Positions 310 to 13,797 are shown, counted from the stretch's first letter. The stretch: 32,000 bases of DNA from an uncultured Erysipelotrichaceae bacterium (GCA_942492995.1 OW818653.1:1440001-1472000); one strand, 5' to 3'. Notes: generated from the sequence alone by a model not told the origin. Program-made: numbers and translations.

Positions 310-603
310 TTATTTATCAGTTATTACTTTACTTTGTTTTAATACAATGAGATTTACTAAGATTGTAACAAATAATAGTGCAAAAGAAATTCCAATTGAT
401 ACTTCAATAGTATCTAAGACTGCTATCCAATCTGAAACAATAGCTCTCGATTCTACCCATACTAATTGAAACACAATCGCTAGAGAAACCATGCTTAGAC
501 TTATGACTGATATAATGTTTTTATCGAATCTGGATCGAAAAGTAATAATTGGTAGAAAAATAGCGATTAAACCAAATAATAAACTAAATAAATTAGAATA
601 CAT
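310..603 (-). CDS. small hydrophobic membrane protein, unknown function
   Basis: 97-aa ORF that is almost entirely hydrophobic (about 3 TM segments). A strong SD (AGGGGGA) precedes the ATG at 603. It is the last gene of the DUF2089 operon. Confidence 0.5.
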   Translation of the reverse strand: MYSNLFSLLFGLIAIFLPIITFRSRFDKNIISVISLSMVSLAIVFQLVWVESRAIVSDWIAVLDTIEVSIGISFALLFVTILVNLIVLKQSKVITDK

Positions 604-632
604 TATAGTTCCCCCTTTATTAGTTAAATTTA

Positions 633-950
633 TTACAAATCTTGAATTTTCATTTTGTCGAGTTCTCTATTCATACTACTTCTTTCGCGAATTACATAAT
701 AGATAGATAAAAGAATAAGTGTTGGTATATTAGATAATACGAATATCATTAGAATTCTACCTACCATATCAATCCAAGTAAAATGATCATTAAAACCAAT
801 ATTCGCTACAGATATCAATGAAAACATTACAAATAATATTGGAATAATCAATCCTGGAATCTTACTTTTTGATTTAGATAAAAACACCTGTAATAAAATA
901 ACTAATCCAATCATAATCAACATTATTAATGTATTTAGTCCATTAATCAT
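633..950 (-). CDS. small membrane protein, unknown function
   Basis: 105-aa ORF with about 3 TM segments and a charged C-terminal tail. Its ATG overlaps the stop of the upstream DUF2089 gene (ATGA), and an AGGGGGAG SD lies inside that gene's end. This indicates translational coupling. Confidence 0.55.
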   Translation of the reverse strand: MINGLNTLIMLIMIGLVILLQVFLSKSKSKIPGLIIPILFVMFSLISVANIGFNDHFTWIDMVGRILMIFVLSNIPTLILLSIYYVIRERSSMNRELDKMKIQDL

Positions 951-1246
951 TTTGACTCCCCCTTAAATTTCTTGTACTCATTAATTAATAATTTTGCGGA
1001 ATTGTATTCCAGTTTATCATTGACTACTAAACTTTTTATTAATGATACATACGCATCATTCGCATTATCTTCACTGATTTCTATTTTCTTAATTAGTTTG
1101 TCTAAGCGTAATCTCACTGTCGGATATGTTACTCCATATTGGTGTGCAATATCCTTCAACGATCCTGAAGACACAATAAATTTTTTTATAAAAGAAACAT
1201 CTTCATCATCAAGATTTGCCATCCACTCAGGAACAATTTCAATCAT
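947..1246 (-). CDS. DUF2089-like DNA-binding protein (HTH portion, no zinc ribbon)
   Basis: The segment LDDEDVSFIKKFIVSSGSLKDIAHQYGVTYPTVRLRLDKLIKKI matches the conserved C-terminal HTH block of DUF2089 proteins as I recall the family. An AAGGTG SD lies upstream. Confidence 0.7.
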   Translation of the reverse strand: MIEIVPEWMANLDDEDVSFIKKFIVSSGSLKDIAHQYGVTYPTVRLRLDKLIKKIEISEDNANDAYVSLIKSLVVNDKLEYNSAKLLINEYKKFKGESK

Positions 1247-1259
1247 TTACTGTCACCTT

Positions 1260-1302
1260 CTTTAATATTATTAAGTATATCCTTTAATATTATTAAAGTA
1301 AA
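1260..1302 (-). promoter_or_regulatory. promoter of the DUF2089 operon with two tandem palindromic operator copies
   Basis: On the minus strand: -35 TTTACT (1302-1297), a 17-nt spacer, then -10 TATACT (1279-1274). The palindrome CTTTAATA-T-TATTAAAG lies at 1282-1298, inside the spacer. A near copy, CTTTAATATTATTAAG, lies at 1260-1275 over the expected TSS. The two starts are 22 nt apart. Confidence 0.45.
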
Positions 1303-1320
1303 CAGTCAATTACACTCAAC

Positions 1321-1346
1321 CAAACAAAAACCGCATTTTAGCGGTT
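1321..1346 (-). terminator. intrinsic terminator after the cupin gene; copy D of the ssrA-terminator hairpin family
   Basis: The minus strand reads AACCGC-taaaat-GCGGTT followed by TTTTTGTTTG. 13 of 14 nt (caaacaaaaaccgc) match the ssrA terminator flank at 12511-12524. Confidence 0.6.
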
Positions 1347-1389
1347 AATGAATCATAGCGAATACTATTTAACTCTACGCATGATATAT

Positions 1390-1791
1390 TCACTCAATAT
1401 TAGAATAGTCCTCATCACTGATTTGTTCTAACCATTCAGTCTCATAATTATCCGCAGGTACTTCAACCGCAAGATGCGTAAACATACTATTACGAGAAGC
1501 TCCATGCCAATGTTTTACACCAACTGGTATTTGAACGATATCTCCAGGATTTAAAATTTGAACTTCTTTCCCAAGTTCTTGATAATATCCTCTTCCACTT
1601 ATAGCCATCAATATTTGACCACCACCATGATGAATATGCCAATTATTTCTACAGCTTGGTTCAAATGTTACATTCATAACTTTTACACCATCGGTTGTTA
1701 ACATATTTAAATACGCTTGGCCTTTGAAGTATTGACTAAACTTTTCAGGCATTGGATCACCTATTGGGAACAATGTTTTATATTCTTGCAT
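1390..1791 (-). CDS. cupin domain protein
   Basis: 133 aa. The motifs NNWHIHHGGGQIL and GDIVQIPVGVKHWHGA are the two classic cupin His-containing motifs. The gene directly follows the CMD gene, with stop and start 1 nt apart. Confidence 0.8.
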   Translation of the reverse strand: MQEYKTLFPIGDPMPEKFSQYFKGQAYLNMLTTDGVKVMNVTFEPSCRNNWHIHHGGGQILMAISGRGYYQELGKEVQILNPGDIVQIPVGVKHWHGASRNSMFTHLAVEVPADNYETEWLEQISDEDYSNIE

Positions 1792-1792
1792 A

Positions 1793-2545
1793 TTATTTTG
1801 TACTCATTTCCGCATCATTGATGCATTTTAGGGCATTAAGCGCTCTAGGATAACCGATATAAGGAATACATTGGGAAACTACATTAATAAGAAATTGTTT
1901 ATTATTTCCAATTCTCATATTTGCGGTAGAATGATAAATTAACTGAGATTCACATCCACCTTGTGCCATTAATAGACAAAACGTTATAATTTCTCTCTGA
2001 CGATAATCTAATCCATTTCTAGTGTAATAATCCCCGAAACAATTCTTTGTTAACCATTGATTAATGTGCAGAGTTTCTTCAGGTGCTTTTTGATGAAATT
2101 CGCGCATGTTCTCACCTGAGATACTTACCATCGCATCTATCCCTTTTTCTAATCGATTTTCAGGACTGGTTGTCGATTGGTTTTCTAATGGTAGTTTTAT
2201 ACCCATTTGAATGAAAACATCATTCGTTAATGTTAAGAATGGTCTTACTCTTCCTATGCCAAGATAAGCAACTGATTGATAAACTATTTCTTTTATTTCA
2301 ATTGGTGATAATCTTGATTTCAACGCTTCATTTAACATTATTTTATATTCATCAATGCCCTGACATCCGATTAAGGACGCGAGTAATACAATGTATTTAG
2401 TTTTTTCATCTAAGTTAGTCTGTGTATTTACTTCGTTCGACACAAAATTATAGAAAAATTCACTAAATTCAGGATCCGTTTCACGTAATTTTATCTCGTC
2501 TTCAGTAAGAAATCTTTTATGCATATCATTCGCTAAATTCGTCAT
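1793..2545 (-). CDS. carboxymuconolactone decarboxylase (CMD/AhpD-like) family protein, two-domain type
   Basis: 250 aa. Its length and sequence pattern are typical of duplicated-CMD proteins that commonly pair with a cupin gene in Firmicutes. This is a family-level call only. Confidence 0.75.
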   Translation of the reverse strand: MTNLANDMHKRFLTEDEIKLRETDPEFSEFFYNFVSNEVNTQTNLDEKTKYIVLLASLIGCQGIDEYKIMLNEALKSRLSPIEIKEIVYQSVAYLGIGRVRPFLTLTNDVFIQMGIKLPLENQSTTSPENRLEKGIDAMVSISGENMREFHQKAPEETLHINQWLTKNCFGDYYTRNGLDYRQREIITFCLLMAQGGCESQLIYHSTANMRIGNNKQFLINVVSQCIPYIGYPRALNALKCINDAEMSTK

Positions 2546-2665
2546 TTTTACTCCTTTGTATCTAACTGATTTATTCTAATTAGTTGATGGTACTGTTATA
2601 AAACTATCGTAGTCTTTTATAAATTGAAAATCAAACTCATGTTTCTTAAAATTAATTAGTAATAC

Positions 2666-4048
2666 TTAGATAACTTGATGACTTAACCATTTTCCATTCT
2701 GATATCTTCTCATACTCAAGAAAGCACGAATACACCAATCAAGTCCCATTGCCAAGGCAATCCCAATAACACCAAGATTGAATACAATCCCAAACAAGTA
2801 AGATAAGATAACTCGCATAATAACTGTCGCAAAGATTGATGTATACATTGCGTATTTAACATCACCAGCAGCTCTTAATCCGTTTGTGAATGGGGAAGAG
2901 ATTGGGAACGCTAGCGCATTAAACAAATTATGGATAAACACTAATACAATAACTAACTGCTTAGTTTCAGGTGTTAGATCATATGCCATTAATGCGAATG
3001 GTACAATTGCTAACATAAATACATTCCATAAAACTGAGCTAAATAGCGCTATCTTCAATAATTTAATCATGTAATATTTCGCAGCTTCTATATCCTTAGA
3101 CCCGAGTGATTGACCGATAATTGTTATAAAAGCAGGGCCAAATGAAACACCAATTAGTGCAGACATAGACCAAAATCCTTGTGCAACGCCATTTGCCGCA
3201 ATTTGACTTGTCCCAAATAACGCTGTAATCGAGCTTAATACGACTTTAGAGATTTGAAATAAACCTTGTTCGATTGAGTTAGGAATCGCTATTCTAAGAA
3301 TTCGTTTCATCATATCGATATGCCAACTCATTATTTGTTTTAACCGTAATGTTAGTTCTTGGTTTTCTCTAAAACACCAAACAACAATAACAACTGCCGC
3401 AAAAACCCTTGATACAAATGTTGGCCACGCAACACCCGCAACACCTGCTTTTAAGATAAATACACCAATATAGTTACCCACAATATTAATGCCATTCATC
3501 CATAATGATAGATGCATGGTACTTTTTGTACGTCCCATACTTCTAAACAATGCGGCACCTGCACTATATAATGCGATTGCTGGAAACGTATACGTCATAA
3601 TCGTAAGATACGTAACACTCGCTTCCATAACAGCTGGTTCAACACTTCCAAATAACCAGTTCAAGATATATTGACGAGAAACTAGTGTCACAATCATTGA
3701 GAAAATTGAGATTACACCAGACAAAGCCATAAGTTGACTTGCGGCTAAATCAGTTAATGAACGATCTTTACGTCCAATCGCTTGACTGACAACGACAGCA
3801 CCACCAGAAGCTAAAGCTGTGAATATATAGATAAATATCGTAATAAACATATTTACGAGTGAAACGCCTGATACAGCTGCTTCGCCTGCATAACTAACCA
3901 TTAACGTATCTGCTATTCCTACAAGCATGACTAAAAATTGTTCGACGAACAATGGTAATATTAATTGTTTTAAATATGAATTCTTAAAGATCTTACGATC
4001 TTCAGAAATTTGATTCTTTGGTTCAATCCATTTTAATATCCACATCAT
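2666..4048 (-). CDS. MATE family efflux transporter
   Basis: 460 aa with about 12 TM segments. The N-terminal block LILPLFVEQFLVMLVGIADTLMVS is typical of MatE/NorM-type proteins. Confidence 0.9.
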   Translation of the reverse strand: MMWILKWIEPKNQISEDRKIFKNSYLKQLILPLFVEQFLVMLVGIADTLMVSYAGEAAVSGVSLVNMFITIFIYIFTALASGGAVVVSQAIGRKDRSLTDLAASQLMALSGVISIFSMIVTLVSRQYILNWLFGSVEPAVMEASVTYLTIMTYTFPAIALYSAGAALFRSMGRTKSTMHLSLWMNGINIVGNYIGVFILKAGVAGVAWPTFVSRVFAAVVIVVWCFRENQELTLRLKQIMSWHIDMMKRILRIAIPNSIEQGLFQISKVVLSSITALFGTSQIAANGVAQGFWSMSALIGVSFGPAFITIIGQSLGSKDIEAAKYYMIKLLKIALFSSVLWNVFMLAIVPFALMAYDLTPETKQLVIVLVFIHNLFNALAFPISSPFTNGLRAAGDVKYAMYTSIFATVIMRVILSYLFGIVFNLGVIGIALAMGLDWCIRAFLSMRRYQNGKWLSHQVI

Positions 4049-4121
4049 GATAATTACCTCACTCTATGGATAGTTTAATATTACATCTAATATATATCAA
4101 ATACTTATAATGAATAATCCA

Positions 4122-5009
4122 CTATGCCTTTAAAGCATCATTAATAAACCTTAGAAATAACCGTGTTGCAGGATTCATTTGTTGATTTTTCTTCCAAGCT
4201 AATACATGACCTGTGGATTGTTCTGGATTAAGAGGAATAAAGCGAATATGCTCATCATTACGAATGAGAAGAGCTCCTTCTATACTTATCGGATAAGCAA
4301 CATCTTGTTTTAAGAGAAGTAATGTATTCGTTATTAAATTTTGTGTAGCCACAATATTGAGTTCTTCTTTTTTAATCCCTAACCATTGTTCTAACTCATC
4401 TTGAACAATAGATCGGCTTGAAAAGATTAAAGGCAACGATTTTAGTTGTTCTACATTTATTTGTTCTAAATTAGATAATGGGTGAGTCTTTGGTAATAGT
4501 ACGCCCCATCTTTCCTTAACATCTAGATGAACTGAATCATATCGTGCGGTCTCAATAGGTTCTAAAAGTATCGCTAAATCAATTAAACTACGATCAAGCT
4601 TTTCTCTTAAATCATCTCCAGCTCCACTAACAATATCAAATACTACACAGGGCTGAACTTCCTTAAATGCTTTAATCCATTGGACTAACAATAATGAAGC
4701 TTTACTCTCTACACAACCAATTGATATTGTCCCAATTAACTCAATCCGAGATTCATGTAGATCACGTTCAGTTTTAACCACAAGATTCAACAATTCTTGA
4801 GCTCTCTGAACTAAAAGTTGTCCACTCTCAGTTAAAATAATTGATCGTTTACCTCGTACAAATAATTGCGTGTTAAGCTCTTTTTCTAACTCACTAAGTT
4901 GTCGACTTAATGTAGGTTGAGTAATGTGCAAACGGTTCGCAGCACGTGTTATATTGCCTTCTTTTGCTAACATGACAAAATACTCCAATACTCTTATTTC
5001 CATGTCCAA
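4122..5009 (-). CDS. LysR family transcriptional regulator
   Basis: 295 aa. It has the N-terminal wHTH LEYFVMLAKEGNITRAANRLHITQPTLSRQLSELEKEL and a LysR substrate-binding domain. It is divergent from the AKR gene. Confidence 0.9.
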   Translation of the reverse strand: MDMEIRVLEYFVMLAKEGNITRAANRLHITQPTLSRQLSELEKELNTQLFVRGKRSIILTESGQLLVQRAQELLNLVVKTERDLHESRIELIGTISIGCVESKASLLLVQWIKAFKEVQPCVVFDIVSGAGDDLREKLDRSLIDLAILLEPIETARYDSVHLDVKERWGVLLPKTHPLSNLEQINVEQLKSLPLIFSSRSIVQDELEQWLGIKKEELNIVATQNLITNTLLLLKQDVAYPISIEGALLIRNDEHIRFIPLNPEQSTGHVLAWKKNQQMNPATRLFLRFINDALKA

Positions 5010-5174
5010 ACCTCTTTTCTAAATTTTCTCATAATTTCAACCTTGATACAAACCGAACATATTTAGATATTGAAAATCAATCCAATAATAAATTCATAAA
5101 AAAGTATAATTTCCGCTTGCATATAAAGTTGGCTTTAGGTTTATGATGTGAATATCCTGAGAGGAGTACAACGT

Positions 5175-6152
5175 ATGGAATATATAAAACTAGGAAATAC
5201 CGGATTAGATGTATCTAGAATTTGTTTAGGATGTATGAGTTTTGGGATCCCAACCCAAGGATATCCTGAATGGTCACTACCAGAAGAAGAAAGTCGAAAG
5301 ATTATTAAACATGCTTTAGATATAGGTATAAACTTTTTTGATACAGCAAATATTTATAGTGGAGGCTCTAGTGAAGAAATTCTAGGGCAAGCATTAAAAG
5401 ATTTCGCTAAAAGAGAAGATGTTGTAATTGCGTCTAAGGTTTATAACACGAATAAGAAAGGTCCAAATTCTAGAGGACTTTCAAGAAAGATTATTATGAG
5501 TGAGATTGAATTAACGCTCAAAAGATTACAAACAGATTATTTAGATTTATACATCATTCATAGATGGGATGAATTTACTCCAATCGAAGAAACCATGGAA
5601 GCATTACATGATCTAGTTAAAGCTGGTAAAGTGAGATACATTGGCGCATCTAGTATGTATGCTTGGCAGTTTGCGAAAGCACAACAAGTTGCGAAAGAAA
5701 GAGGTTGGACTCAATTTGTTTCGATGCAAAACAAGTACAACTTATTCTATCGTGAAGAAGAACGCGAAATGATTCCGTTATTGCAAGATCAAAAAGTTGC
5801 TATGACACCTTATCAACCTCTTGCAGGTGGAAGATTAGCACGATTTAGAGATGAACAAACTGTAAGAGCTGAATCACAAGCAGCGAATAAGAGTTCAACA
5901 ACTCTATACAGTGACGAATGTGAAAATGAAATAAACAATAGAGTTGAAGAATTAGCAAAGAAACACAATGTTGGTAAGAGTATTATTTCCATGTCTTGGA
6001 TATTTAGTAAGAGTTTTATAACATCCGCTTTGATTGGTAGTTCTAAGACCCAACAACTTGATGATGCAGTACTAGCTCTTGATTTTAAATTAAGTAATGA
6101 AGAAATTAAATATTTAGAAGATGCGTATATACCTCATTTCCTAAGATTCTAG
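5175..6152 (+). CDS. aldo/keto reductase
   Basis: The N-terminus MEYIKLGNTGLDVSRICLGCMSFG and the motifs FFDTANIYSGG and LYIIHRWD are AKR hallmarks. I moved the start from the track's GTG at 5148 to the ATG at 5175, which sits behind GAGAGGAG. Confidence 0.9.
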   Translation: MEYIKLGNTGLDVSRICLGCMSFGIPTQGYPEWSLPEEESRKIIKHALDIGINFFDTANIYSGGSSEEILGQALKDFAKREDVVIASKVYNTNKKGPNSRGLSRKIIMSEIELTLKRLQTDYLDLYIIHRWDEFTPIEETMEALHDLVKAGKVRYIGASSMYAWQFAKAQQVAKERGWTQFVSMQNKYNLFYREEEREMIPLLQDQKVAMTPYQPLAGGRLARFRDEQTVRAESQAANKSSTTLYSDECENEINNRVEELAKKHNVGKSIISMSWIFSKSFITSALIGSSKTQQLDDAVLALDFKLSNEEIKYLEDAYIPHFLRF

Positions 6153-6222
6153 ATCGTATATTTATTACATTAAAATTACAAGGTAGATATAAACTGGATA
6201 ATATAAAGACAAAGTTCGAAAA

Positions 6223-6501
6223 CTAGATATGTAAAAATAATGTAACTGTAACCAAGTCTCCTCCAGTTTTACCTATAGAATCTCTTATTTTCTTATTAAT
6301 CGAAATCATTCGATCTTCATCTTTCCTTGGTGCGAGATTAATATTTCTTACTTCATAACCATCGATTGTCCCAGAAACTTTTAGTAATCCCCACTTACCT
6401 TCCAATTGAGATGTACCTGGTATTACTATGTGATAGGTCCAAGCACCAAACCCAAATTTATATTTTAGTTCTAATTGTTGATTACTGATAATTTCCTTCA
6501 T
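6223..6501 (-). CDS. DUF1905 domain protein
   Basis: 92 aa. The pattern GAWTYHIVIPG...LKVSGTIDGYEV...GGDLVTVTL fits the DUF1905 small beta-barrel family as I recall it. Confidence 0.6.
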   Translation of the reverse strand: MKEIISNQQLELKYKFGFGAWTYHIVIPGTSQLEGKWGLLKVSGTIDGYEVRNINLAPRKDEDRMISINKKIRDSIGKTGGDLVTVTLFLHI

Positions 6502-6593
6502 TTTACCTACCTCTTTGTAATTAATATTATTATACCTCTTATGTTAATGTAGTTATAAAATCAAAATATAAAACTAAGTATTGATTCAACTAA

Positions 6594-6619
6594 AAGAGAT
6601 GAAACGTGTTCCATCTCTT
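6594..6619 (-). terminator. intrinsic terminator downstream of the XRE-DUF805 gene
   Basis: An 8-bp stem is formed by aagagatg (6594-6601) and catctctt (6612-6619). On the minus strand it is followed by TTTTAG. Confidence 0.5.
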
Positions 6620-6657
6620 TCTTTATATTTTTATAAACACTTTACATTATCAACTCA

Positions 6658-7188
6658 TTAATTATTCACTTGCCCATCATCTAAGTTCTTTGATTTTTCA
6701 GCCATAAAGTATAATACAATAATCTGACCAAATGGTACAAACAAGAACAATTGCCACCATACACTTTGCCCAGCATCATTCAATCTTCGCGCCCCTACCG
6801 CAAGAAATGGAACTAAGAATATAACAGTGATGATTTGATTAAGTCTTTCATGGATAAGGTATGCGACGGACATAACCAATACCATAAATAGTAGAAACCA
6901 CCAATATTCATAACGTGTCGCGGTCCCAGAAAAGTTTGAATATTCCAAAAATACCTTTTTAATCGCTTCTATTGGAGTGGTTGGTTGTTGTTTTTCCTGG
7001 ATAATCAATTCATTGTGATCAACATCTAGTGCCTTTGCTAGTACATTTAATGATTCAATAGATATAGTAATACCATTTTCAATTCGTTGTATTGTACGTA
7101 GACTTAAACCACTTACTTCACTAAGTTGTTCCTGTGACCAACCTTTATTTAGCCTTAGATTTTTTACTTTATTTGAATCAATTTTCAT
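6658..7188 (-). CDS. XRE-family HTH fused to a DUF805 membrane domain
   Basis: The N-terminus LRLNKGWSQEQLSEVSGLSLRTIQRIENG is a Cro/C1-type HTH. The C-terminus YEYWWFLLF...RRLNDAGQSVWW matches DUF805 signature blocks. I prefer the start at ATG 7188, which has GAGGA 8 nt upstream, over the track start at 7203, which lacks an SD. Confidence 0.8.
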   Translation of the reverse strand: MKIDSNKVKNLRLNKGWSQEQLSEVSGLSLRTIQRIENGITISIESLNVLAKALDVDHNELIIQEKQQPTTPIEAIKKVFLEYSNFSGTATRYEYWWFLLFMVLVMSVAYLIHERLNQIITVIFLVPFLAVGARRLNDAGQSVWWQLFLFVPFGQIIVLYFMAEKSKNLDDGQVNN

Positions 7189-7220
7189 ATCATTTATCCT
7201 CATTTACTTGATTTTCACTT

Positions 7221-7249
7221 ATTATAGTTAATTAACATTTATGTGTCTA
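7221..7249 (-). promoter_or_regulatory. candidate promoter of the XRE-DUF805 gene with a palindrome in the spacer
   Basis: On the minus strand: -35 TAGACA (7249-7244), a 17-nt spacer, then -10 TATAAT (7226-7221). The perfect 10-bp palindrome GTTAATTAAC (7227-7236) abuts the -10. Confidence 0.4.
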
Positions 7250-7291
7250 CGACAGTTATACGCCAATTACCCGCAAGTAGTATTATAATTT

Positions 7292-7885
7292 TTACAACAA
7301 TGACTCCTGTGACACTTCAATTCTTTTAATCAATTTAGCTGGAACTCCACCTACAACAGTTAGTGGTGCAACATCCTTTGTTACTACTGCTCCTGCCGCA
7401 ACAACTGCTCCTTGACCGATTCTAATTCCTGGCAATACAGTTACGTTAGATCCAATCCAAACATCATTCTCAATAATAATCGGTGCATAGTGATTTTTCC
7501 GTTTCTTTTCAAGCTCAAGCGCATGATTAACTGTCGCAAGAACCACATTATGTCCAATCAATACTCTATCTCCGATTGTTATTCCACCTTGATCTTGGAA
7601 TTTACATCCAGAGTTTATAAAAACATTCTTTCCAAATGTTATATTTTTCGCAAAGTCCGCATTAAATGGAGGAAATAGTTTAAAACTTTCATCTACTTTT
7701 TTTCCAATAAGTTTGGTGATTAGTTCAATAATCTCATTTTGAGTATGGTACTCAGAATTTATTTTCATGCATATTTGAATTGATTCTTGAATTAAAGACT
7801 CTACTAATTTTGATCTTTCTTCTTTAATAGATGGATCTATGATTTCATTTCTGAATCCAGCAAGTACATCATTGAGCGTTACCAT
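7292..7885 (-). CDS. sugar O-acetyltransferase (maltose/galactoside acetyltransferase family, left-handed beta-helix)
   Basis: 197 aa. It has the Mac-type N-terminal region and hexapeptide repeats ([40 protein letters not shown]). Confidence 0.85.
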
Positions 7886-7966
7886 TAATGTTCTCCTATT
7901 TGTTAAATCTGATTTAATTATAAACTATAACTATGAGCAAGATAGAAATACGCTTTTAAACTCCTA

Positions 7967-8002
7967 AACAAAACCGCTTTCCAGCGGTTCGTTCATCAAA
8001 TT
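7967..8002 (-). repeat. copy C of the ssrA terminator plus spacer (no tmRNA sequence)
   Basis: aaaaccgctttccagcggttcgttcatcaaatt (7970-8002) matches 12517-12548 plus flank at 30 of 33 positions by hand alignment. Similarity stops exactly where the tmRNA 3' end would begin. No gene ends within 300 nt upstream of it on the minus strand. Confidence 0.6.
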
Positions 8003-8301
8003 ATAATAATTAATAAGGCAGCTCATTTACTAAACAAAATTCTGCGTTAAGTAATAAATTCATTTAGCTATTATTATCTAGTGAATTAATCTTAAAAATA
8101 ATATATAAGGATCTAGATCTTTAAGACATCCAAGTATATTGAAATTATATATAGCAACATAGCCTAATCCTTTAGCAAATGAATTTGGGACTGGATTTAA
8201 CTTTATATCTTACTCCTCACTATAGCTAATCATAAACACATTTTGTTTTACTTTTATTAGGAAACCAAAATCAATATATTTTAATCATAATAAAAAAGCA
8301 A

Positions 8302-9090
8302 TTAATTATCAGACGCTAAAATACTGACCAATATTGAAAAGCGTTTCTTACCTCTTAGATTAAAGTAATCTACAATTTTATCTCCATAAATAATAACAAT
8401 CATAATAAGTTGAAGTGCTAGTAAAATATAGGCAAATACACCTATGTAATGGAATGCTGTAGGTATTTTTTGAGTCCATGGATTTAAATTAGCAAAGTAA
8501 TTAATCTGATTTTGTATCATTAATAGCGAAGCTACAAAGGTATATACTTGTAACATAAACATTATGATGTATATACTTTTATTCTTTAAACTGGCTTTAA
8601 GTTTCCCTCGTAAAAGTAATATTAGATTTGATAAAGTAAAAATTACGAAAAGTAGCATTGCAATCCCGAAACCATTATCATCTAATACTCCATATTGAAA
8701 AAGATTCTTAATAGATAAATATCCACTTATATGATATGCATATTCGTTATCAACGAATATGTTCAGTGAATCATTATAGTTAATGCTCAATGGTGTATAC
8801 TTCGCAAACATTAAACTAAGAGAAATAATTGATAAAATAATTAAATTCAGTGATTTACTATTATAAATATTTGAGTTGTCTTGTTTTTGATCTGAAATTA
8901 GAAAATCAACAGAAGTATTAAATATCTGAGCTATTCGCTTTAAGTTCTGAATATCAGGAATTCCTTCATCATTTTCCCACTTGCTTATAGCTTTACTACT
9001 AACCCCAATTAATGAAGCTAATTGTTGTTGCGTTAGTTGATTTTTACTTCTATATTCTTTTATCTTATATCCTATAGATGTTTTTTCCAT
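8302..9090 (-). CDS. XRE-family HTH fused to a polytopic membrane domain
   Basis: 262 aa. The N-terminus IKEYRSKNQLTQQQLASLIGVSSKAISKWENDEGIPDIQNLKRIAQIF is a Cro/C1 HTH. About 5 hydrophobic segments follow. A GGGGGA SD lies upstream. Confidence 0.75.
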   Translation of the reverse strand: MEKTSIGYKIKEYRSKNQLTQQQLASLIGVSSKAISKWENDEGIPDIQNLKRIAQIFNTSVDFLISDQKQDNSNIYNSKSLNLIILSIISLSLMFAKYTPLSINYNDSLNIFVDNEYAYHISGYLSIKNLFQYGVLDDNGFGIAMLLFVIFTLSNLILLLRGKLKASLKNKSIYIIMFMLQVYTFVASLLMIQNQINYFANLNPWTQKIPTAFHYIGVFAYILLALQLIMIVIIYGDKIVDYFNLRGKKRFSILVSILASDN

Positions 9091-9183
9091 TTAGAATTTC
9101 CCCCAAACTCTACTGTAAATTATGCCATTGTTTTTATCAATTCATTTCTATCTACGAATCGTATACATACCAATATTGATAAT

Positions 9184-9543
9184 TTAGTACTTTCTAGAAA
9201 GATATATATACATTGTAGTAAACGACATAAATCCTATTCCGAACAATACTTCAAAAATTAATGCAGAACTAACATTTTTGATTAAATCAAACGAATCACT
9301 TCCAAAATAACTTAATAAGATTACTGCCATCATTACAATAAAAGCTTTAGATTGAGCTCGTTCATTGATAAATTTTTCTCGCTCATCTTGAGACTTCTTT
9401 GAATCGCTATATTGAATTGTCCCTGAACTGAAAACTGCTAATGCGGTAGAAAGTTTAGGTATAGTGTCATTTTGATAAATTAAACCTAATACTAATAGTA
9501 ATATGTATGTAATCATAATAAGAATTATGTATTTTATATTCAT
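9184..9543 (-). CDS. small membrane protein (DUF2178-like pattern, tentative)
   Basis: 119 aa with 4 hydrophobic segments and a central DEREKFINERAQSKAF block resembling the DER motif of DUF2178-type proteins. An AAAGGAGG SD lies upstream. Confidence 0.5.
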   Translation of the reverse strand: MNIKYIILIMITYILLLVLGLIYQNDTIPKLSTALAVFSSGTIQYSDSKKSQDEREKFINERAQSKAFIVMMAVILLSYFGSDSFDLIKNVSSALIFEVLFGIGFMSFTTMYIYLSRKY

Positions 9544-9629
9544 AATTTCCTCCTTTAAAAATTGATCTATATGGAACTACATCCTTTTGTCAAAAGCTTT
9601 ATTTACAATCCAGTTTGTAATATTTATTA

Positions 9630-9989
9630 CTAAGAATACTCCAGCACCGTATAACGAATCCATGAGTTATCTAGAAACATTCCTATAATCATAATAATTA
9701 CTAAAAACACATATATTACATTTAACGTTAGTACTGCGGATTTCCCTTTGACTTGAATAGTTCTTTCGTCATTAACTAGTTCTTTAGCTTTTCGATTAAG
9801 CCCTGGGAATCTTGTTTGATAATAAACATTATATGTGATTGCTATAATTGATGCGCCTAACAAACCTGAAATAGAATTTTGTAGACTGTTTTGTCCACCT
9901 AATAATACAAATATTGTCGTCCCAATGAAATAACCAAGAAATGAATATATGCCCAGCATGATATAATATCGATTAACTTTCTTTTCCAT
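9630..9989 (-). CDS. small membrane protein partner of the YozG-like regulator (DUF2178-like, tentative)
   Basis: I moved the start to ATG 9989 (protein begins MEKKVNRYY...). It sits 1 nt after the regulator's stop codon (9993-9991) and has GAGGA upstream. It has 4 hydrophobic segments and an NDERTIQVKGKSA block. Confidence 0.55.
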   Translation of the reverse strand: MEKKVNRYYIMLGIYSFLGYFIGTTIFVLLGGQNSLQNSISGLLGASIIAITYNVYYQTRFPGLNRKAKELVNDERTIQVKGKSAVLTLNVIYVFLVIIMIIGMFLDNSWIRYTVLEYS

Positions 9990-9990
9990 T

Positions 9991-10188
9991 CTAATCATCC
10001 TCAAATATGAATAATGACTCAATTGACATATCAAAGAATTTTGCAAGTCTAAATGCTAATTGTATTGATGGATTATACTTACCATTCTCCAATGAATTTA
10101 TCGTTTGACGAGAAACTCCTAGTTTGTCCGCTATTTCTTCTTGAGTGTAATTAAATTTTTTCCTAATTTCTTCTAACTTATTTTTCAT
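9991..10188 (-). CDS. small XRE-family transcriptional regulator (YozG-like)
   Basis: MKNKLEEIRKKFNYTQEEIADKLGVSRQTINSLENGKYNPSIQLAFRLAKFFDMSIESLF is the classic roughly 65-aa HTH_3 regulator. I moved the start from 10236 to ATG 10188. Confidence 0.85.
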   Translation of the reverse strand: MKNKLEEIRKKFNYTQEEIADKLGVSRQTINSLENGKYNPSIQLAFRLAKFFDMSIESLFIFEDD

Positions 10189-10204
10189 TTTAACTTCCAT
10201 ATTG

Positions 10205-10254
10205 TGTAAAGCAAGCTTTACATATATATTAAACAACAGAATTTTCTATGTCAA
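10205..10254 (-). promoter_or_regulatory. promoter of the YozG-like regulator operon plus an 18-bp perfect palindrome
   Basis: On the minus strand: -35 TTGACA (10254-10249), a 17-nt spacer, then -10 TAATAT (10231-10226). The palindrome TGTAAAGC-AA-GCTTTACA (10205-10222) begins just downstream of the expected TSS. This is a likely auto-operator. Confidence 0.5.
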
Positions 10255-10320
10255 GCATACTTTACTTTATAGCTATTATTATACCAATATTAACATTGCA
10301 TGATAAAGTCTAACATCAAG

Positions 10321-10368
10321 CAAAAACCGCTTTTCGGCGGTCAGTTCACCAATTTGGTGGAAGTGAGG
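10321..10368 (-). repeat. copy B: displaced ssrA 3' end (last 14 nt) plus terminator; att-like direct repeat
   Basis: caaaaaccgcttttcggcggtcagttcaccaatttggtggaagtgagg matches 12515-12562 at 43 of 48 positions (ungapped hand alignment). The match includes TGGTGGAAGTGAGG, which is the reverse complement of CCTCACTTCCACCA. Confidence 0.75.
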
Positions 10369-10443
10369 CGTGGCACTTTTATCACTTGGTTGTATAGTTA
10401 AGAATTCCGACTTTTTTAAATGGTTCCGCGTTTTAAACATGCG

Positions 10444-10725
10444 TTATCCTGCGGGAAAATTATTATATACCTTAAACACATAAAGGATATAGATATCCTC
10501 AATCTCGATGTGATCTTCAAATTTAAAATACCTCACCATATACCCCAGACCGATAGCAGTGGGTCTATAATACTTACCACCATCGCTATTAGTAAATGTT
10601 TCAATGAATTTATATGCAAAAACCGGTTCTTTCTTTCGATACATTCGATCATAATCAAATGTAATAATCGATATTAGAATTACAGCAAATACTATTAATG
10701 TCTTTTTAAAGTTATGATCTCGCAA
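10444..10725 (-). CDS. small N-terminally anchored membrane protein, unknown function (start uncertain)
   Basis: The ORF sits directly after the amidase gene. I favour the TTG start at 10725, which has GAAGG about 10 nt upstream and overlaps the amidase stop by 14 nt. The track ATG at 10779 would overlap the amidase gene by 68 nt. It has one TM (TLIVFAVILISIITF) followed by a roughly 60-aa soluble part. Confidence 0.4.
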   Translation of the reverse strand: MRDHNFKKTLIVFAVILISIITFDYDRMYRKKEPVFAYKFIETFTNSDGGKYYRPTAIGLGYMVRYFKFEDHIEIEDIYILYVFKVYNNFPAG

Positions 10726-11827
10726 GTATTGCAAACCTTCCTGTTCCTGAACTTTTTTCCCAATCATTATTGTTATCATTTACTTGTAAATGATAATTAT
10801 TAGAATGTTGAGCTACTTTAAAATTATAGTAACTTCTTGATTTTCCATCCTCATCAGTATATGTGCCAAGAGTAGTTGAAATAGCGGTCACAAATCCTAC
10901 ATGGTCCCATGAGTTGTCATTATTTGAATCTAAAATTATTATATCTCCAACTTTTACATTCTGACTAAATATTTTAAAATCAGTATATGATGCATATAAC
11001 CCAAACTTCAAAATAAACGATGACACCCTTATAAATGATGCAGAATGTGTATGTGTGTACTCATTTTGGTACGTATACGGATTTAAATATGTTTTAACTT
11101 TATGCCACCAGCTTACATTAACGTCATCGGTTGGAGAAGTCACTTGGACAACACCCATAGCCTCAAGAATTTGTGATGTAAAATTCGTGCAATCAGTACC
11201 GCCGAAATTATAGTACTTATTAATACTATTGTTATAAATAGCATAAGTTTGTGCATAAGAAACACCTGCACTAATGTTTCTTACAGCAAGAATACTTCTA
11301 CTTGTCTTAAAGAGAATTGAATTATTAATTTGAAGTCTTACAGCTTCAGTATAAGGCAAATTAATAATAATAGTGTTTATATTTTCATTTATAGAACCAT
11401 TGTTAATATACTCTCTAATTTCATTGTTATAAATCGTATTTTCCGCAATATCTATAAATTCAACAATAGTTTGAATTTCATTTTGTATACCATTTGAAAA
11501 ATTGTAGTTTAGTAATGCATCTCTAAAATTACCAATATTTGCTAAATTAAATGGAATATTGATATCGTTTTTGAGCAATTCAAAAACGGAATAATGGTCA
11601 ATAACAAATCTCTGAATTGCGTCATTAGGATTAATGAATTCCTTAAGCATTTCATACACTTCATTGTTAAATACAAAATTCTCAATATGAGTTTGATACG
11701 CGTTATTAACTTCAGTATTTTCAACCTTTTTAACAATATTAGCAGCCATTCCATTAATGGGTATATATTGAGTAAAAACAATAAATAGAATTATTGTAAG
11801 CTTAAGTAAATTAGATACTCTTTTCAT
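10712..11827 (-). CDS. secreted putative cell-wall amidase (Amidase_6 / papain-like Cys-His fold)
   Basis: 371 aa with an N-terminal signal-like segment (LLKLTIILFIVFTQYIPINGMAA). The C-terminal block YAQTYAIYNN...YYNFGGTDCTNFTSQILEAMG...WWH...VGDIIILD...WDHVGFV...AQHS matches the Amidase_6 pattern as I recall it: catalytic Cys in DCTNF, then His. A GGGAG SD lies upstream. Confidence 0.7.
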   Translation of the reverse strand: MKRVSNLLKLTIILFIVFTQYIPINGMAANIVKKVENTEVNNAYQTHIENFVFNNEVYEMLKEFINPNDAIQRFVIDHYSVFELLKNDINIPFNLANIGNFRDALLNYNFSNGIQNEIQTIVEFIDIAENTIYNNEIREYINNGSINENINTIIINLPYTEAVRLQINNSILFKTSRSILAVRNISAGVSYAQTYAIYNNSINKYYNFGGTDCTNFTSQILEAMGVVQVTSPTDDVNVSWWHKVKTYLNPYTYQNEYTHTHSASFIRVSSFILKFGLYASYTDFKIFSQNVKVGDIIILDSNNDNSWDHVGFVTAISTTLGTYTDEDGKSRSYYNFKVAQHSNNYHLQVNDNNNDWEKSSGTGRFAILARS

Positions 11828-12510
11828 ATAATCTCCCTTTCATTTACTACATAACTAATTCCAAAATTTCAAGAATAATTATCTGCTTTATTTCTAAACA
11901 AAATATAGAGATATAAACAGTACTCAATAAAAAATAAATTCGATATTAATTATCACTCTTCGACCTCGCAAATCATTATTTTGTCATTTATAGAAGACTT
12001 CTTATTGAGTTCTCAAATATATGATAAACAACCTAAATCTTATTGAACTTATTGTCTAACAATGAAATCAATCAATATATAAAGTGCATACCTTCCATGT
12101 TGTACTAGCCTCCCCCTATTTATATTGTAAATTGTATTTTGGCCATTCTTGTCTACTCTTTTTAACGATTTTTGACATTTAATGTAATAAAATTGACAAC
12201 TATGGGCGACAAATCAAACAATTCTTTTTTTCGTGTTAAAAAACTTATGATCCATCAAAGAAAAGGTTTCATTTTAAACTTGAGGAATCTATCCATTCAG
12301 ACCAACTACAGTTTTCAAACCCTCTCGATTTTCATATAAGCGAAGAACGAAGTTATGAAAAGCAATATATAAATTCTCTTTGAATATTTAAACAACAGCA
12401 TACGAATGTTGACATTTATGCAGTCAAACGACTCATTAATATAGCAGAACTTTACATCAACTTTATAAGTATATCTACCAAATGTTGTAACTAGTCAAGC
12501 TATTATCACA

Positions 12511-12536
12511 AAAACAAAAACCGCCTTTCAGCGGTT
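12511..12536 (-). terminator. ssrA intrinsic terminator (copy A)
   Basis: The minus strand reads AACCGC-tgaaag-GCGGTT followed by TTTTGTTTTT, starting 12 nt after the tmRNA CCA end. Confidence 0.75.
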
Positions 12537-12548
12537 CGTTCACCAAAT

Positions 12549-12892
12549 TGGTGGAAGTGAGGGGAGTCGAACCCCTGTCCAAATTGTGTCCACATTCAAA
12601 CATCTACAGTTTAGTCTGAATTGATAATCAAGCAAGTTGCCTCAGACAAGCCTTACTTGATGTGTCTAACTGGATTTAACTTAACTTTGAATAGACATCT
12701 GGTTAAGCTGTTCCTTGTTTATGGTGCCTAGTACAACCCCAAGGACAGGGTCGAGTAGACAGCTACGAGCCTTTAGCGGCTAACTATGCAGCGAAACTTA
12801 ATTTGTTTCCGGTTAATTTTTTTTGGCAATTAGGTCGCCACTCCACTGCAGTCTGAATCCAACTGACAATCTGTCGAAACCATGACACCCCC
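12549..12892 (-). ncRNA. ssrA: tmRNA (transfer-messenger RNA, SsrA), about 344 nt with encoded CCA
   Basis: The 5' end GGGGGUGUCAUGGUUUCGACAG and the 3' end GGACAGGGGUUCGACUCCCCUCACUUCCACCA show the tRNA-Ala-like acceptor stem with a G3-U pair and the T-arm GGUUCGACUCC. An internal reading frame ends ...GGA AAC AAA UUA AGU UUC GCU GCA UAG (...GNKLSFAA-stop), which is typical of a tag template. Confidence 0.92.
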
Positions 12893-12913
12893 ATGTGGGA
12901 TGGATGCATTGAA

Positions 12914-12942
12914 AGTATATTACTAACCATAATAAAAGTCAA
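12914..12942 (-). promoter_or_regulatory. ssrA promoter
   Basis: On the minus strand: -35 TTGACT (12942-12937), a 17-nt spacer, then -10 TATACT (12919-12914). This predicts a short 5' leader ahead of the mature 5' end at 12892. Confidence 0.6.
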
Positions 12943-12981
12943 TCATGTGGCTCAAAATTGGGACACCTGATCGACTATAAA

Positions 12982-13797
12982 TTAAGCTAATTTCTTTCTG
13001 AGATACGTAGAGATTGCTTCAACGATTAATACGAATATAATCAACCCAACAAGTAATGCCCCAGCATCCTTCCAACGATACGCATTAATCGCAAAAATCA
13101 AAGGTGCACCAATACCACCCGCCCCAACCATACCGAGAATTGTCGCATATTTGACATTAATCTCGAAACGATAAATCGCAGTAGATAGGAAATTACTCAT
13201 AAGTTGAGGTATAATTCCGTAACGTACTTTTTGTATACCATCACAACCAGACGCATCAAGTGCTTCGATAATACCTGGATCAAGTTCTTCAATTGTTTCA
13301 ATAAACAACTTAGAAACCATTCCTACACTCGCAATCGCAAGTGTTAATACACCTGTAAACGCTCCAGGACCGGTAACACGGATAAACATCAAACCATATA
13401 CTACTGCAGGGAATGTACGAATAACCGTAATTGCCGCAACTCCAAAATGTGTAAACCATGAAGGTACGATATTTCTTGAAGATAAGAATGCGAGAGGAAT
13501 CGATATAATCGTCCCAATAATTGTCCCTAAGAACGCAATCGCAGCTGTTTCTAACAATAAATATGGAACACCTGTTTTAGTTGTAAAGTCTAATAAGAAC
13601 GGAAGATTTGGTGTAAATACACTTTGAATAATATTCATCGCGATTTCTAATCCAGTATCTGTTATTCCTTTATAGTTTATATAATCCAATGAGAATAGAA
13701 TAATGATTGCACTAATCCCAATAACTAACGCATTACGCCAGAATACTTTAGGCTGTTTAGCCAATTGGTCTTGAACTCTTTTATTTTGCGTACTCAT
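12982..13797 (-). CDS. phnE: phosphonate/phosphite-type ABC transporter permease
   Basis: 271 aa, a polytopic PhnE-type permease. It is paralogous to the upstream permease, shown by the shared blocks RTFP..V..L.F and GYVGAGGIG / GMVGAGGIG. There is a 4-nt start/stop overlap. Confidence 0.85.
   Translation of the reverse strand: MSTQNKRVQDQLAKQPKVFWRNALVIGISAIIILFSLDYINYKGITDTGLEIAMNIIQSVFTPNLPFLLDFTTKTGVPYLLLETAAIAFLGTIIGTIISIPLAFLSSRNIVPSWFTHFGVAAITVIRTFPAVVYGLMFIRVTGPGAFTGVLTLAIASVGMVSKLFIETIEELDPGIIEALDASGCDGIQKVRYGIIPQLMSNFLSTAIYRFEINVKYATILGMVGAGGIGAPLIFAINAYRWKDAGALLVGLIIFVLIVEAISTYLRKKLA

Follow-up and report, generated by a model that had tools for sequence, protein, structure and literature searches.

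Positions 1-12548 of the window (the whole 32,000-nucleotide stretch of DNA analysed, from an uncultured Erysipelotrichaceae bacterium) probably represent the end nearest to ssrA of a recombinase-less cassette array, built up by serial, site-specific insertion at the tmRNA 3' end, with the candidate recombinase acting in trans. A sequence-only reading of this DNA had proposed that serial insertions into the 3' end of ssrA produced tandem islets without an integrase, and this was borne out by a matching separate contig (L003), by polymorphic content beside a common flank in relatives and by the ssrA-specific nature of the repeated hairpin and flank.

The tmRNA gene (ssrA) is full length and was located at 12549-12892 on the minus strand using ARAGORN and Rfam (RF00023, 140.6 bits); its flanking genes are phnE/phnC-type transporter genes, and the palindrome CACCAA-T-TTGGTG sits at the CCA end of the tmRNA. 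The repeated core was found to be the final 14 nt of the tmRNA (CCTCACTTCCACCA, 12549-12562), and a terminator scan placed the intrinsic-terminator hairpin of ssrA at 12518-12537. Displaced copies of the tmRNA end and/or the terminator lie at 10321-10368 (copy B), 7970-8002 (copy C) and 1321-1346 (copy D), and both the coordinates and the hand-counted identities of the earlier reading were confirmed (43/48 for B and 30/33 for C, each against the authentic terminator, A). The motif AAAACCGC-N6-GCGGT has four matches in the 32-kb window, all within 1-12548 and in a single orientation, and had 0 matches in 100 dinucleotide-preserving shuffles; the repeats are real, non-random and far above chance.

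The window was compared with a set of related Erysipelotrichaceae metagenome contigs, which included no complete genome of the lineage. In these relatives the boundary is a conserved unit of approximately 78 nt, consisting of a 26-nt arm (TTTTACCAAGTGATAAAAGTGCCACG), the tmRNA core and the ssrA terminator. Fifty-one displaced units (45 distinct) were identified across approximately 30 loci, on one strand per locus and downstream of the tmRNA wherever the contig includes ssrA; in one 47-kb contig, a first stretch holds the tmRNA with 5 units and a second stretch holds 3 more. The units are 85-97% identical across approximately 75 nt and are spaced 0.85-9.2 kb apart, many cassettes measuring just 0.85-1.6 kb. 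A profile built from the 45 distinct displaced units in other contigs was then run over the window, where it matched B at full length (10315-10394, E=9e-25), A (12509-12564, E=8e-16), C (7967-8002, E=2e-6, profile positions 46-81) and D (1319-1352, E=7e-4), with no other match at E<1. The hairpin ACCGC-N6-GCGGTTTT was found 55 times in unit-linked form in approximately 425 kb of related DNA, with 4 other matches (D itself and 3 at two core-gene terminator sites in contig L123), and had no match in the window's 19.5 kb of core genes; together with the shuffles, these counts upheld the view that hairpin and flank are ssrA-specific rather than a generic terminator family.

The 26-nt arm, which is not ssrA sequence, is intact at unit B of the window and is conserved in the 45 distinct units. 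It had been missed in the sequence-only reading and marks a lineage-wide cassette family, so that the islets are not merely decayed islands. The arm is retained even in a more distant metagenome-assembled genome (L099), whose core and terminator differ, and such strong conservation of a non-tmRNA segment suggests functional constraint, for example protein binding. Sequence discontinuities cluster at a single point, directly after CCACCA; variants of the terminator go with the cassette that lies downstream, those of the arm with the one that lies upstream. Of 48 genes lying just upstream of a unit, approximately 42 have the orientation of that unit. Cassette order is variable, with identical cassettes recurring beside different neighbours in different arrays: an ArsR-CadA cassette was found behind the tmRNA or behind four different cassettes, and a RhuM-Fic cassette was present in 12 loci. 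Identical cassettes stand intact at different array positions, so the recombinase-less form would itself be the mobile unit. The most decayed unit is the one adjoining the backbone flank (L123, L133). The boundaries are polymorphic, as serial insertion had led the earlier reading to expect: relatives with a common phnE-ssrA flank differ in content directly after ssrA.

Within the window, the cassette nearest to ssrA was the best preserved. The present ssrA terminator (A, 12509-12548, minus strand; terminator scan and unit profile) is of the variant ATTTGGTGAACGAACCGCTGAAAGGCGGTTTTTG, which goes along with the same amidase cassette in L003, and it appears to double as the 5' end of cassette 1. 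The cargo (10369-12508, minus strand; assigned from Pfam, L003 and the arm match) comprises a 687-nt AT-rich leader, a secreted Amidase_6/CHAP-like protein (10712-11827, minus strand, Pfam) and a small protein of 111 amino acids (10444-10779, minus strand), and ends in the 26-nt arm (10369-10394, minus strand, 0 mismatches). This arm belongs to unit B (10315-10394, minus strand), which is intact, with the displaced core at 10355-10368 and the terminator at 10321-10354, and which gave blastn matches to approximately 50 units at other loci. The intact tmRNA gene thus stands at one end of the element and a displaced core, in the 43/48 repeat, at the other. The element predicted at 10369-12548 was recovered as the separate 2207-bp contig L003 (99.9% identical to window 10361-12562), which comes from another sample, breaks at the repeats and has an upstream junction different from that of the window: its cassette is preceded by GCACG, which is neither tmRNA sequence (CTCCC) nor the cassette's own arm (CCACG) and which agrees with an arm variant whose end is GGCACG. 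Cassette 1 looks intact and recently mobile, contrary to the earlier description of the islets as fixed or decayed.

Cassette 2 (8003-10320, minus strand) encodes an XRE HTH protein (9991-10236), two DUF2178-like membrane proteins (9630-10046 and 9184-9543) and an HTH-membrane protein (8302-9090), all on the minus strand and assigned with Pfam. A small-protein gene survives next as a truncated remnant (8036-8275, minus strand), 81% identical to a stretch in L143, L150 and L136 that there adjoins an intact unit. Alignment with the intact orthologous unit showed that the arm and core of cassette 2 (8003-8035, minus strand) have decayed, chiefly by C>T and G>A changes, and that unit C (7967-8002, minus strand) retains the terminator half only. 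The distal end of cassette 2 is reduced to copy C by the loss of arm and core. The similarity of copy C does stop near the CCA position, as had been stated, but it does so because arm and core have decayed.

The third islet is composite: 1347-7966 (mostly minus strand) holds, by Pfam, a hexapeptide acetyltransferase (7292-7885), HTH-DUF805 (6658-7203), DUF1905 (6223-6501), an aldo/keto reductase (5148-6152, the one gene here on the plus strand), LysR (4122-5009), MatE (2666-4048), CMD (1793-2545) and a cupin (1390-1791), with a lost boundary at approximately 7277-7291. Several of these lie directly behind a unit elsewhere: HTH-DUF805 in L142 and L148, LysR-MatE in L144 and L146, and the cupin behind an intact unit in L139 and a degenerate one in L135. 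On this comparison the tract is read as several older cassettes, three or more, that have fused here and stand separate in other arrays. Unit D (1319-1352, minus strand), the weakest of the four, is a remnant of hairpin and T-tract only, 84% identical over 51 nt to a unit in L148. It is kept in a conspecific strain (L166), which has window positions 1-6129 at 97% identity; given this sharing, the array's distal part is taken to be fixed and not mobile. Beyond it, 1-1318 (GC 0.275), with a DUF2089 HTH protein (947-1246, Pfam) and two small membrane proteins, all on the minus strand, matches the gene order of L166 and may be either a further cassette or chromosomal backbone. The AT-richness ascribed to the islets held in part: GC was 0.288 (10369-12514) and 0.270 (8003-10320), and in the composite tract a less distinct 0.330 (1347-7969), against 0.353 for 12893-32000.

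These features can be accommodated in a simple scheme, although the contigs showed neither an excised circle nor an empty site of this exact strain, and no recombinase-dependent event. An integrated cassette would have an ssrA terminator copy at its start, carry cargo mostly co-oriented with ssrA and end with its arm set against the final 14 nt of the tmRNA, while its circular form would bear a single arm-core-terminator site. Exchange with the tmRNA end would take place within 25 nt that extend from the core to the end of ATTTGGTGAAC; a cassette-borne 3' end and/or terminator would pass to the tmRNA, and the displaced older end would move downstream, where its hairpin would terminate the genes of the newcomer. 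As the previous end would be displaced at each insertion, the newest cassette should adjoin ssrA. Recombination of the tmRNA site with any downstream unit would excise the intervening cassettes. A circle site differing from attB in its left half only is not the textbook attP x attB pairing of a large serine recombinase.

The absence of integrase, excisionase and transposase genes from 1-12548, as first read, held for all ORFs of at least 75 amino acids (Pfam). Pfam likewise found no recombinase among the window ORFs scanned (to the right of ssrA, 12 of the 17 larger ones) or among 50 ORFs from array loci, BLASTP with the serine recombinase described below gave no match to any of 333 ORFs, and no integrase or fragment of one is kept in the cassettes examined at approximately 30 loci. 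With none in the window, a recombinase must act in trans. The tyrosine recombinase first supposed to act at ssrA was not the type encountered, the recombinases at this site in relatives being only CcrB-like large serine recombinases. In sister species, elements with such a gene adjoin the same tmRNA CCA end; in all of the approximately 20 contexts looked up the gene adjoins the CCA, in three junction types, and its ORF extends 76 nt antisense into ssrA. The best NCBIfam match of the protein is NF047343 CcrB (E=1.5e-48), at 166 bits against a cut-off of 900 bits, and the elements were followed at their tmRNA-side end. In 456 kb, the arm 12-mer CAAGTGATAAAA was found 36 times in units and otherwise only inverted at type-1 recombinase junctions, where it sits directly after the CCA (7 loci). 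At the type-2 junctions of the closest relatives (L004/L014) the 12-mer was matched at just 8/12 positions, in a region that also codes for the recombinase C-terminus, so part of the conservation may be coding. From these junctions we infer that a CcrB/DsiB-like large serine recombinase acting in trans is the best candidate mover.

Another type of recombinase might supply the activity in trans, namely a chromosomal or prophage tyrosine enzyme (a classical tDNA integrase or Xer-like), the serine elements then being independent users of the same hotspot. The repeat of 14 nt of tmRNA plus approximately 36 nt downstream does resemble the identity block of a classical tyrosine integrase (PMC4383910), the palindrome at the CCA end could serve as a simple core site, and the link to the serine recombinase depends on a single 12-mer. 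We nevertheless consider this unlikely: no tyrosine recombinase was detected by Pfam in the window or the 50 array-locus ORFs, the recombinases at the site are all serine, and the 12-mer is confined to units and serine-recombinase junctions. Less likely still is that the units are passive repeats, shuffled by RecA-dependent homologous exchange with ssrA and one another (for example after DNA uptake) and with no site-specific recombinase active today. Unit identity of 85-97% would suffice for occasional exchange of this kind, the arrays contain no recombinase in the searches made, and the distal array is fixed between strains; against this, the non-tmRNA arm is highly conserved even where core and terminator differ (L099), the discontinuities gather at one point, the 12-mer reappears at serine-recombinase junctions, and the first making of arm-core-terminator junctions would still need site-specific integration. 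The model implicit in the sequence-only reading, of ordinary ssrA islands or prophages whose own tyrosine integrase was later deleted, would fit a classical pattern at tmRNA genes (PMC4383910) and the decay of copies C and D, but appears very improbable in view of cassettes examined at approximately 30 loci without an integrase or detectable fragment, many of them only 0.85-1.6 kb long, and identical cassettes intact at different positions. A generic terminator family with no mobile-element history, suggested by the two L123 sites and by copy D, which keeps only the hairpin part, is scarcely credible and is effectively rejected for A, B and C, given the tmRNA sequence (14 nt) and 26-nt arm carried by B, the unit-linked hairpins, their absence from the core genes of the window and the polymorphic content between units.

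Cassettes inserted serially at ssrA, the preferred reading, have counterparts in several known systems. In integrons, the tyrosine recombinase IntI is encoded beside the array head, the attC sites are imperfect palindromes and promoterless cassettes share a common promoter. The present cassettes are likewise small, mostly co-oriented, of variable order, with accessory, defence and resistance cargo and one conserved site each, and insertion would also occur at one fixed site at the array head. Here, however, the head is an RNA gene with a regenerated 3' end, flanked by phnE/phnC-type genes and no intI, and in place of an attC-type site there is an arm, a tmRNA core and an intrinsic terminator; as every unit contains a terminator, the cassettes, unlike those of integrons, cannot share one promoter. 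CIMEs of streptococcal ICEs (accretion-mobilization) are att-flanked, lack recombination and transfer genes and lie in tandem at one site, and are described as derivatives of ICEs with tyrosine integrases. The present arrays share the att-type flanks, the lack of recombination genes and the tandem arrangement with related elements, but neither conjugation genes nor a tyrosine integrase was found. SCCmec and pseudo-SCC elements of staphylococci (CcrAB/CcrC) insert at the 3' end of the essential single-copy gene rlmH/orfX with short direct repeats; they use a large serine recombinase, and their composite tandem arrays also contain elements that lack one and can be moved in trans. Insertion at a 3' end, direct repeats and tandem arrays with recombinase-less elements are common to both, and the recombinase of the relatives scored best against the CcrB model. 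In contrast to SCC, the target is ssrA, the CcrB score of 166 lies far below the 900-bit equivalog cut-off with no CcrA-like partner identified, and the arrays are longer, nearly all of their units lacking a recombinase.

Islands in tDNA and tmRNA genes (Islander/TIGER, PMC4383910) and the tycheposons of Prochlorococcus (bioRxiv 10.1101/2020.12.28.424599) insert in the 3' part of the gene and leave a displaced boundary fragment. As there, later integrations push older ones inward and degenerate remnants remain; an element there is defined by the integrase that it encodes, in most cases a tyrosine recombinase, whereas the recurrent unit here has none. The closest known system is that of the ssrA-specific genomic islands (ssrA-GIs) of Dehalococcoides, tandem islands downstream of a single-copy tmRNA gene (McMurdie et al. 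2011, PMC3146451). [quoted passage not shown] The tandem array behind ssrA, the 3'-end repeats and the adjoining conserved non-ssrA motif are all shared, as is, in relatives, the antisense overlap with ssrA (here 76 nt). The host phylum differs (Bacillota here, Chloroflexota there), as does the repeat (14 nt of tmRNA and a ~36-nt terminator, against 20 bp); the recombinase is absent from all cassettes examined, recombinase-bearing elements being seen in sister species only, where they were followed at their tmRNA-side end, and the cassettes, at 0.85-9 kb, are much smaller and reappear in different orders. Cassette arrays at ssrA are already known in kind, and occur here in an unusually pure, cassette-like form in an uncultivated Erysipelotrichaceae lineage.

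A single tmRNA gene (ssrA, 12549-12892, minus strand) was identified in the window by both ARAGORN and Rfam (RF00023, 140.6 bits), and tmRNA was the sole Rfam family matched across the whole window. Read in the direction of the tmRNA, the 3' end of the gene is ...GGTTCGACTCC-CCTCACTTCCACCA, followed by ATTTGGTGAACG and then by the intrinsic-terminator hairpin AACCGC-TGAAAG-GCGGTTTTTG. The sequence-only reading had described three displaced copies (B, C and D) of this segment in addition to the authentic one (A), and all three were recovered in place, with 43 of 48 positions identical between A and B and 30 of 33 between A and C. The motif AAAACCGC-N6-GCGGT was present four times in the 32 kb, each time downstream of ssrA and in ssrA orientation, and was found in none of 100 shuffles. 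The window was re-scored with a profile built from 45 distinct boundary units of related loci (each a ~78-nt unit made up of a 26-nt arm, a 14-nt tmRNA core and the ssrA terminator). Copy B was matched over the full length (10315-10394, E=9e-25), copy A over core and terminator (12509-12564, E=8e-16), copy C over the terminator half only (7967-8002, E=2e-6) and copy D over the hairpin and T-tract (1319-1352, E=7e-4), with nothing else in the window below E=1. In approximately 425 kb of related DNA, ACCGC-N6-GCGGTTTT had 55 unit-linked occurrences, and the sole others were at D and two core-gene terminator sites of one related locus (L123), indicating that the hairpin is specific to the ssrA array and is not a generic terminator.

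The flank to the right of ssrA encodes a phosphonate-type ABC transporter, a 5'-nucleotidase, LemA/DUF2207 proteins, smpB, rnr, eno, tpi and pgk. The smpB and ssrA genes are neighbours in many Bacillota; in the window smpB (22798-23256) is 10 kb from ssrA, with the transporter, nucleotidase and LemA/DUF2207 genes lying between them (region 12893-23256), and this order is kept in two relatives (L155, L159). A PTS_IIB-like ORF of ~100 amino acids, located between phnE and ssrA in relatives (L004:7625-7921), is absent from the window, where the phnE-ssrA gap is just 89 nt (12893-12981). The closest relatives of the ssrA-adjacent permease (84-92% amino acid identity) were on metagenome contigs, and contigs bearing the same repeat were binned as Erysipelotrichaceae MAGs. 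Exact-protein look-ups with phnE, enolase, amidase and DUF2089 returned short metagenome contigs only, among them L003 and L166.

Scans of public collections with the unit signature gave at least about 30 relevant loci. The pattern used for genome contigs, AWTTGRTGAACNNNCCGCNNNNNNGCGG, was too degenerate, and the matches listed were mostly from Nonomuraea and Streptosporangium, with at least nine relevant Erysipelotrichaceae-type contigs among them. Contigs L004-L014 have the phnE-tmRNA flank in common with the window and a tmRNA 92-95% identical to that of the window, and their content diverges immediately after the tmRNA. In some of them the terminator is the same and unrelated cargo comes next (an ABC/radical-SAM/PqqD cluster, an ArsR-CadA operon, or hydrolases), while in others CCACCA is followed by GTTTTATCCC..., leading into the 3' end of a gene for a 522-amino-acid large serine recombinase. 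Identical gene order in all relatives would have counted against insertion at ssrA, and the loci proved polymorphic at precisely this point. One of them (L005) has a second copy of the core 6.4 kb downstream, and the 21 nt in front of it, CCAAGTGATAAAAGTGCCACG, are those found in front of copy B.

Across about 30 loci, 51 displaced units were found, and the 45 that are distinct have the consensus TTTTACCAAGTGATAAAaGTGcCACG, CCTCACTTCCACCA, ATTTGGTGAACTAACCGCTGAAAaGCGGTTTTTGTtT. All units of any one locus are on a single strand and, on contigs that include the tmRNA, lie downstream of it in tmRNA orientation; successive units are separated by 0.85-9.2 kb (median ~1.6 kb). On one 47-kb contig (samples Ga0209207), a first stretch holds the tmRNA and five units (L151) and a second stretch a further three (L142). 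The junction between array and backbone was reached in two loci (L123, L133), beside a tnaA-like gene in both, and the last unit before the backbone is the most degenerate (CCTCACTTCGACCA and CATCACTTCAACTA), as the oldest displaced end should be. In a more distant Erysipelotrichaceae MAG (L099; 4770-4860 and ~6560-6641), which has no full tmRNA gene, at least 53 nt of the tmRNA 3' end are present together with the terminator; a unit ~1.8 kb upstream of this fragment has the conserved arm but differs in its core (CTTCTCCTCCACCA) and terminator. This locus suggests that other att variants or other target sublocations exist; no Rfam family was matched in it or in L143. Scans of viral contigs for arm plus core found nothing, and BLAST of the unit against plasmids and phages was equally negative, which leaves carriage of the cassettes by known phages or plasmids unsupported.

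The 333 ORFs of these loci were clustered and the genes on either side of every unit were tabulated. It was observed that the same cassettes (gene blocks inserted at the ssrA 3' end and closed by a unit) recur with different neighbours. A cassette encoding ArsR, CadA, PedC and a thioredoxin-like membrane protein is located directly after the tmRNA in L010 and L013 and after four other cassettes in L145, L146, L152 and L154, while a RhuM-Fic cassette, present in 12 loci, has at least six different predecessors and five different successors. Terminator variants go with the downstream cassette (...GAACTGACCGCTGAAAAGCGGTTTTTTAATAG always precedes ArsR, whether behind tmRNA or arm) and arm variants with the upstream cassette (ATAAAC(G/A)TG(G/A)CACG follows RhuM-Fic with one exception, L152). 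Exchange therefore takes place between the arm and the first variable base of the terminator, an interval of 25 nt from the core through ATTTGGTGAAC; the last 53 nt of the tmRNA are invariant among relatives, so SNPs there are uninformative as to the crossover position. In aberrant units the discontinuity is always directly after CCACCA (L152 at 6381, L140 at 641, L136/L143/L150, and L123/L124 with a 10-nt insertion). Arm and core are intact in these units (L152:6381-6470; L123:2605-2690; L140:~560-641; L143:~5770-5841), and CCACCA is followed by unrelated sequence, by an insertion of 10 nt or by 11 divergent nt. This change may indicate where cleavage occurs, or recombination at a secondary site. 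Cassette cargo (L021, L137, L139, L140, L142, L145, L146) is rich in defence, toxin and resistance functions, including Shedu SduA_C, AbiEii, Schlafen AlbA_2-HATPase, DUF4143 ATPases, Fic/RhuM, a MerA-like reductase and P-type metal ATPases.

Such an array accounts for the 12.5 kb of low-GC accessory genes and repeated terminators in the window. The proposal of serial insertion, giving tandem integrase-less islets, is supported, with corrections. A Pfam search of every ORF of at least 75 amino acids agreed that 1-12548 encodes no integrase, excisionase or transposase. The expected AT-richness held for the two islets nearest ssrA (GC 0.288 for 10369-12514 and 0.270 for 8003-10320) and barely for the third (0.330 for 1347-7969, against 0.353 for 12893-32000). 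Cassette 1 (10369-12548), which closes in the intact unit B, encodes a secreted Amidase_6/CHAP-like protein and a 111-amino-acid small protein. Between terminator A and the amidase-like gene is a 687-nt AT-rich stretch with no convincing ORF (11828-12514), which is 99.9% conserved in L003 and could hold the promoter of the cassette or a small RNA. Cassette 2 (8003-10320) encodes an XRE regulator, two DUF2178-like membrane proteins and an HTH-membrane protein. The small-protein family of 10444-10779 lies directly before the arm in cassettes 1 and 2 and in those of L143 and L150, and had no Pfam or NCBIfam match.

L003, a 2207-bp contig from a different sample, matches window 10361-12562 at 99.9% identity and breaks off inside the repeats at both ends. 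Its first five bases, GCACG, differ from those of the tmRNA (CTCCC) and from the end of cassette 1's own arm (CCACG) and fit an arm variant ending ...GGCACG. In the window, cassette 1 is first after ssrA; on the simplest reading of these bases, in the L003 sample it would sit, with the same terminator variant (GAACGAACC), behind another cassette. A self-circle or a tandem repeat of cassette 1 was rejected, as the contig would then start with its own arm end.

The end of cassette 2 at copy C can be read in two ways. The 241 nt at 8036-8275 are a truncated remnant of the same small-protein gene family as 10444-10779, 81% identical to cassette ends in L143, L150 and L136 that adjoin an intact arm and core, while the 33 nt where arm and core are expected (8003-8035) are unrecognisable, differing largely by C>T and G>A, and the terminator after them is kept. 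Copy C is thus best regarded as a decayed unit, which also explains why similarity stops near the CCA position. The other reading, an attR left by a serine recombinase crossing over at the CCA end, is made less likely than decay by the orthologous cassette end and the predominance of transitions. Beyond copy C, the 6.6 kb to copy D hold genes that form separate cassettes elsewhere, each directly behind a unit: HTH-DUF805 (L142, L148), where homology to the window extends to 7276 and the acetyltransferase gene ahead of it has its stop codon 15 nt away; LysR-MatE (L144, L146); and a cupin, behind an intact unit in L139 and, in L135, between a degenerate unit and a core-less terminator resembling D. 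The islet between C and D therefore consists of three or more fused cassettes that no longer have their internal units. L166, a contig of the same species, is 97.2% identical to window 1-6129, D included, so the distal array is common to both and fixed; 1-1318 may be a further cassette or backbone. Of 48 genes directly upstream of a unit, approximately 42 share its orientation, which places the displaced ssrA terminator to terminate the transcript of the preceding cassette, and we infer that this is why the hairpin was kept in C and D while the recombination half decayed.

No recombinase domain was detected by Pfam in 50 ORFs of array loci, and BLASTP of the serine recombinase against all 333 ORFs matched only at serine-recombinase loci. 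The relatives' enzyme (CcrB-like; L014:3778-5346, minus strand; also L004, L155-L163 and L167-L171) has Resolvase, Recombinase and Zn_ribbon_recom domains, and a protein of 421 amino acids is its conserved neighbour; its nearest solved structures are large serine recombinases of the SPbeta type, and its best NCBIfam model is CcrB (E=1.5e-48; at 166 bits against a cut-off of 900, not an equivalog). In every one of ~20 contexts (three junction types, sister species) the gene lies directly against the tmRNA CCA, and 76 nt of its ORF overlap ssrA in antisense, so that the last ~25 codons depend on integration state. At the type-1 junction, the element side reads CCA, then T-TTTTATCACTTG-CTGGTGGCAC, and its reverse complement contains CAAGTGATAAAA and GTGCCAC, both sub-motifs of the cassette arm. 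The 12-mer CAAGTGATAAAA was present in 456 kb only in units (36 times) and type-1 junctions (7 loci). These motifs would be compatible with a single serine-recombinase attP, its two inverted half-sites being the arm and the recombinase-proximal end; the recombinase type of the closest relatives has 8 of the 12 positions, in a region that is also coding. The cargo of the serine-recombinase elements includes type I R-M, WYL and PLD/NgoFVII-like nuclease genes, and every contig from five cluster look-ups ended inside the element. The closest relative of an element's HsdM (94% identity) was located at an unrelated chromosomal site that has no units, and viral-contig scans for relatives of the recombinase and for the predicted palindromic attP found nothing.

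Taken together, it is tentatively proposed, as a reading that we consider possible rather than probable, that this lineage keeps an integron-like platform on its tmRNA gene. Dozens of minimal cassettes, with one arm-core-terminator site each and defence, toxin, metal-resistance, efflux and redox genes as cargo, would be inserted and excised at the ssrA 3' end by a CcrB/DsiB-like large serine recombinase encoded elsewhere and acting in trans. Each insertion would replace the tmRNA 3' end and terminator, placing all cassettes under selection for a functional tmRNA end. A circle of cassette 1 is predicted to have the junction ...AAAAGTGCCACG-CCTCACTTCCACCA-ATTTGGTGAACGAACC, and its loss to leave the empty site tmRNA...GACTCC-CCTCACTTCCACCA-AATTGGTGAACTGACC. 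If true, this would represent a second, independent way of building a chromosomal cassette reservoir and a source of a compact att site (<80 bp) with a partner recombinase for a universally conserved RNA gene, and would explain the circulation of defence and resistance genes in an uncultivated gut and environmental Bacillota lineage.

Among known systems, the window array lacks the own integrase that defines classical tDNA islands (PMC4383910) and tycheposons. It also departs from integrons, as it has neither an adjacent intI nor attC sites and each of its boundaries contains a terminator. In mechanism it is analogous to SCCmec and pseudo-SCC composites and to streptococcal CIMEs. It most closely resembles the ssrA-GI family of Dehalococcoides, which has in common the target gene, tandem arrays, a conserved motif upstream of the repeat, a CcrB-like recombinase overlapping ssrA (here in sister species; dsiB is described as overlapping in the same way) and islands that lack an integrase and are interpreted as cis-mobilizable elements (PMC3146451). 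Tandem islands at ssrA and recombinase-less 'cis-mobilizable' islands are already known; the system here differs in that the repeat takes in the whole terminator, the cassettes are very small, no examined cassette carries a recombinase and reshuffling is integron-like. An array almost wholly of tiny recombinase-less cassettes that share one compact conserved site and are freely reshuffled between strains is functionally close to an integron, although its site is a different one and its recombinase is probably of the serine type.
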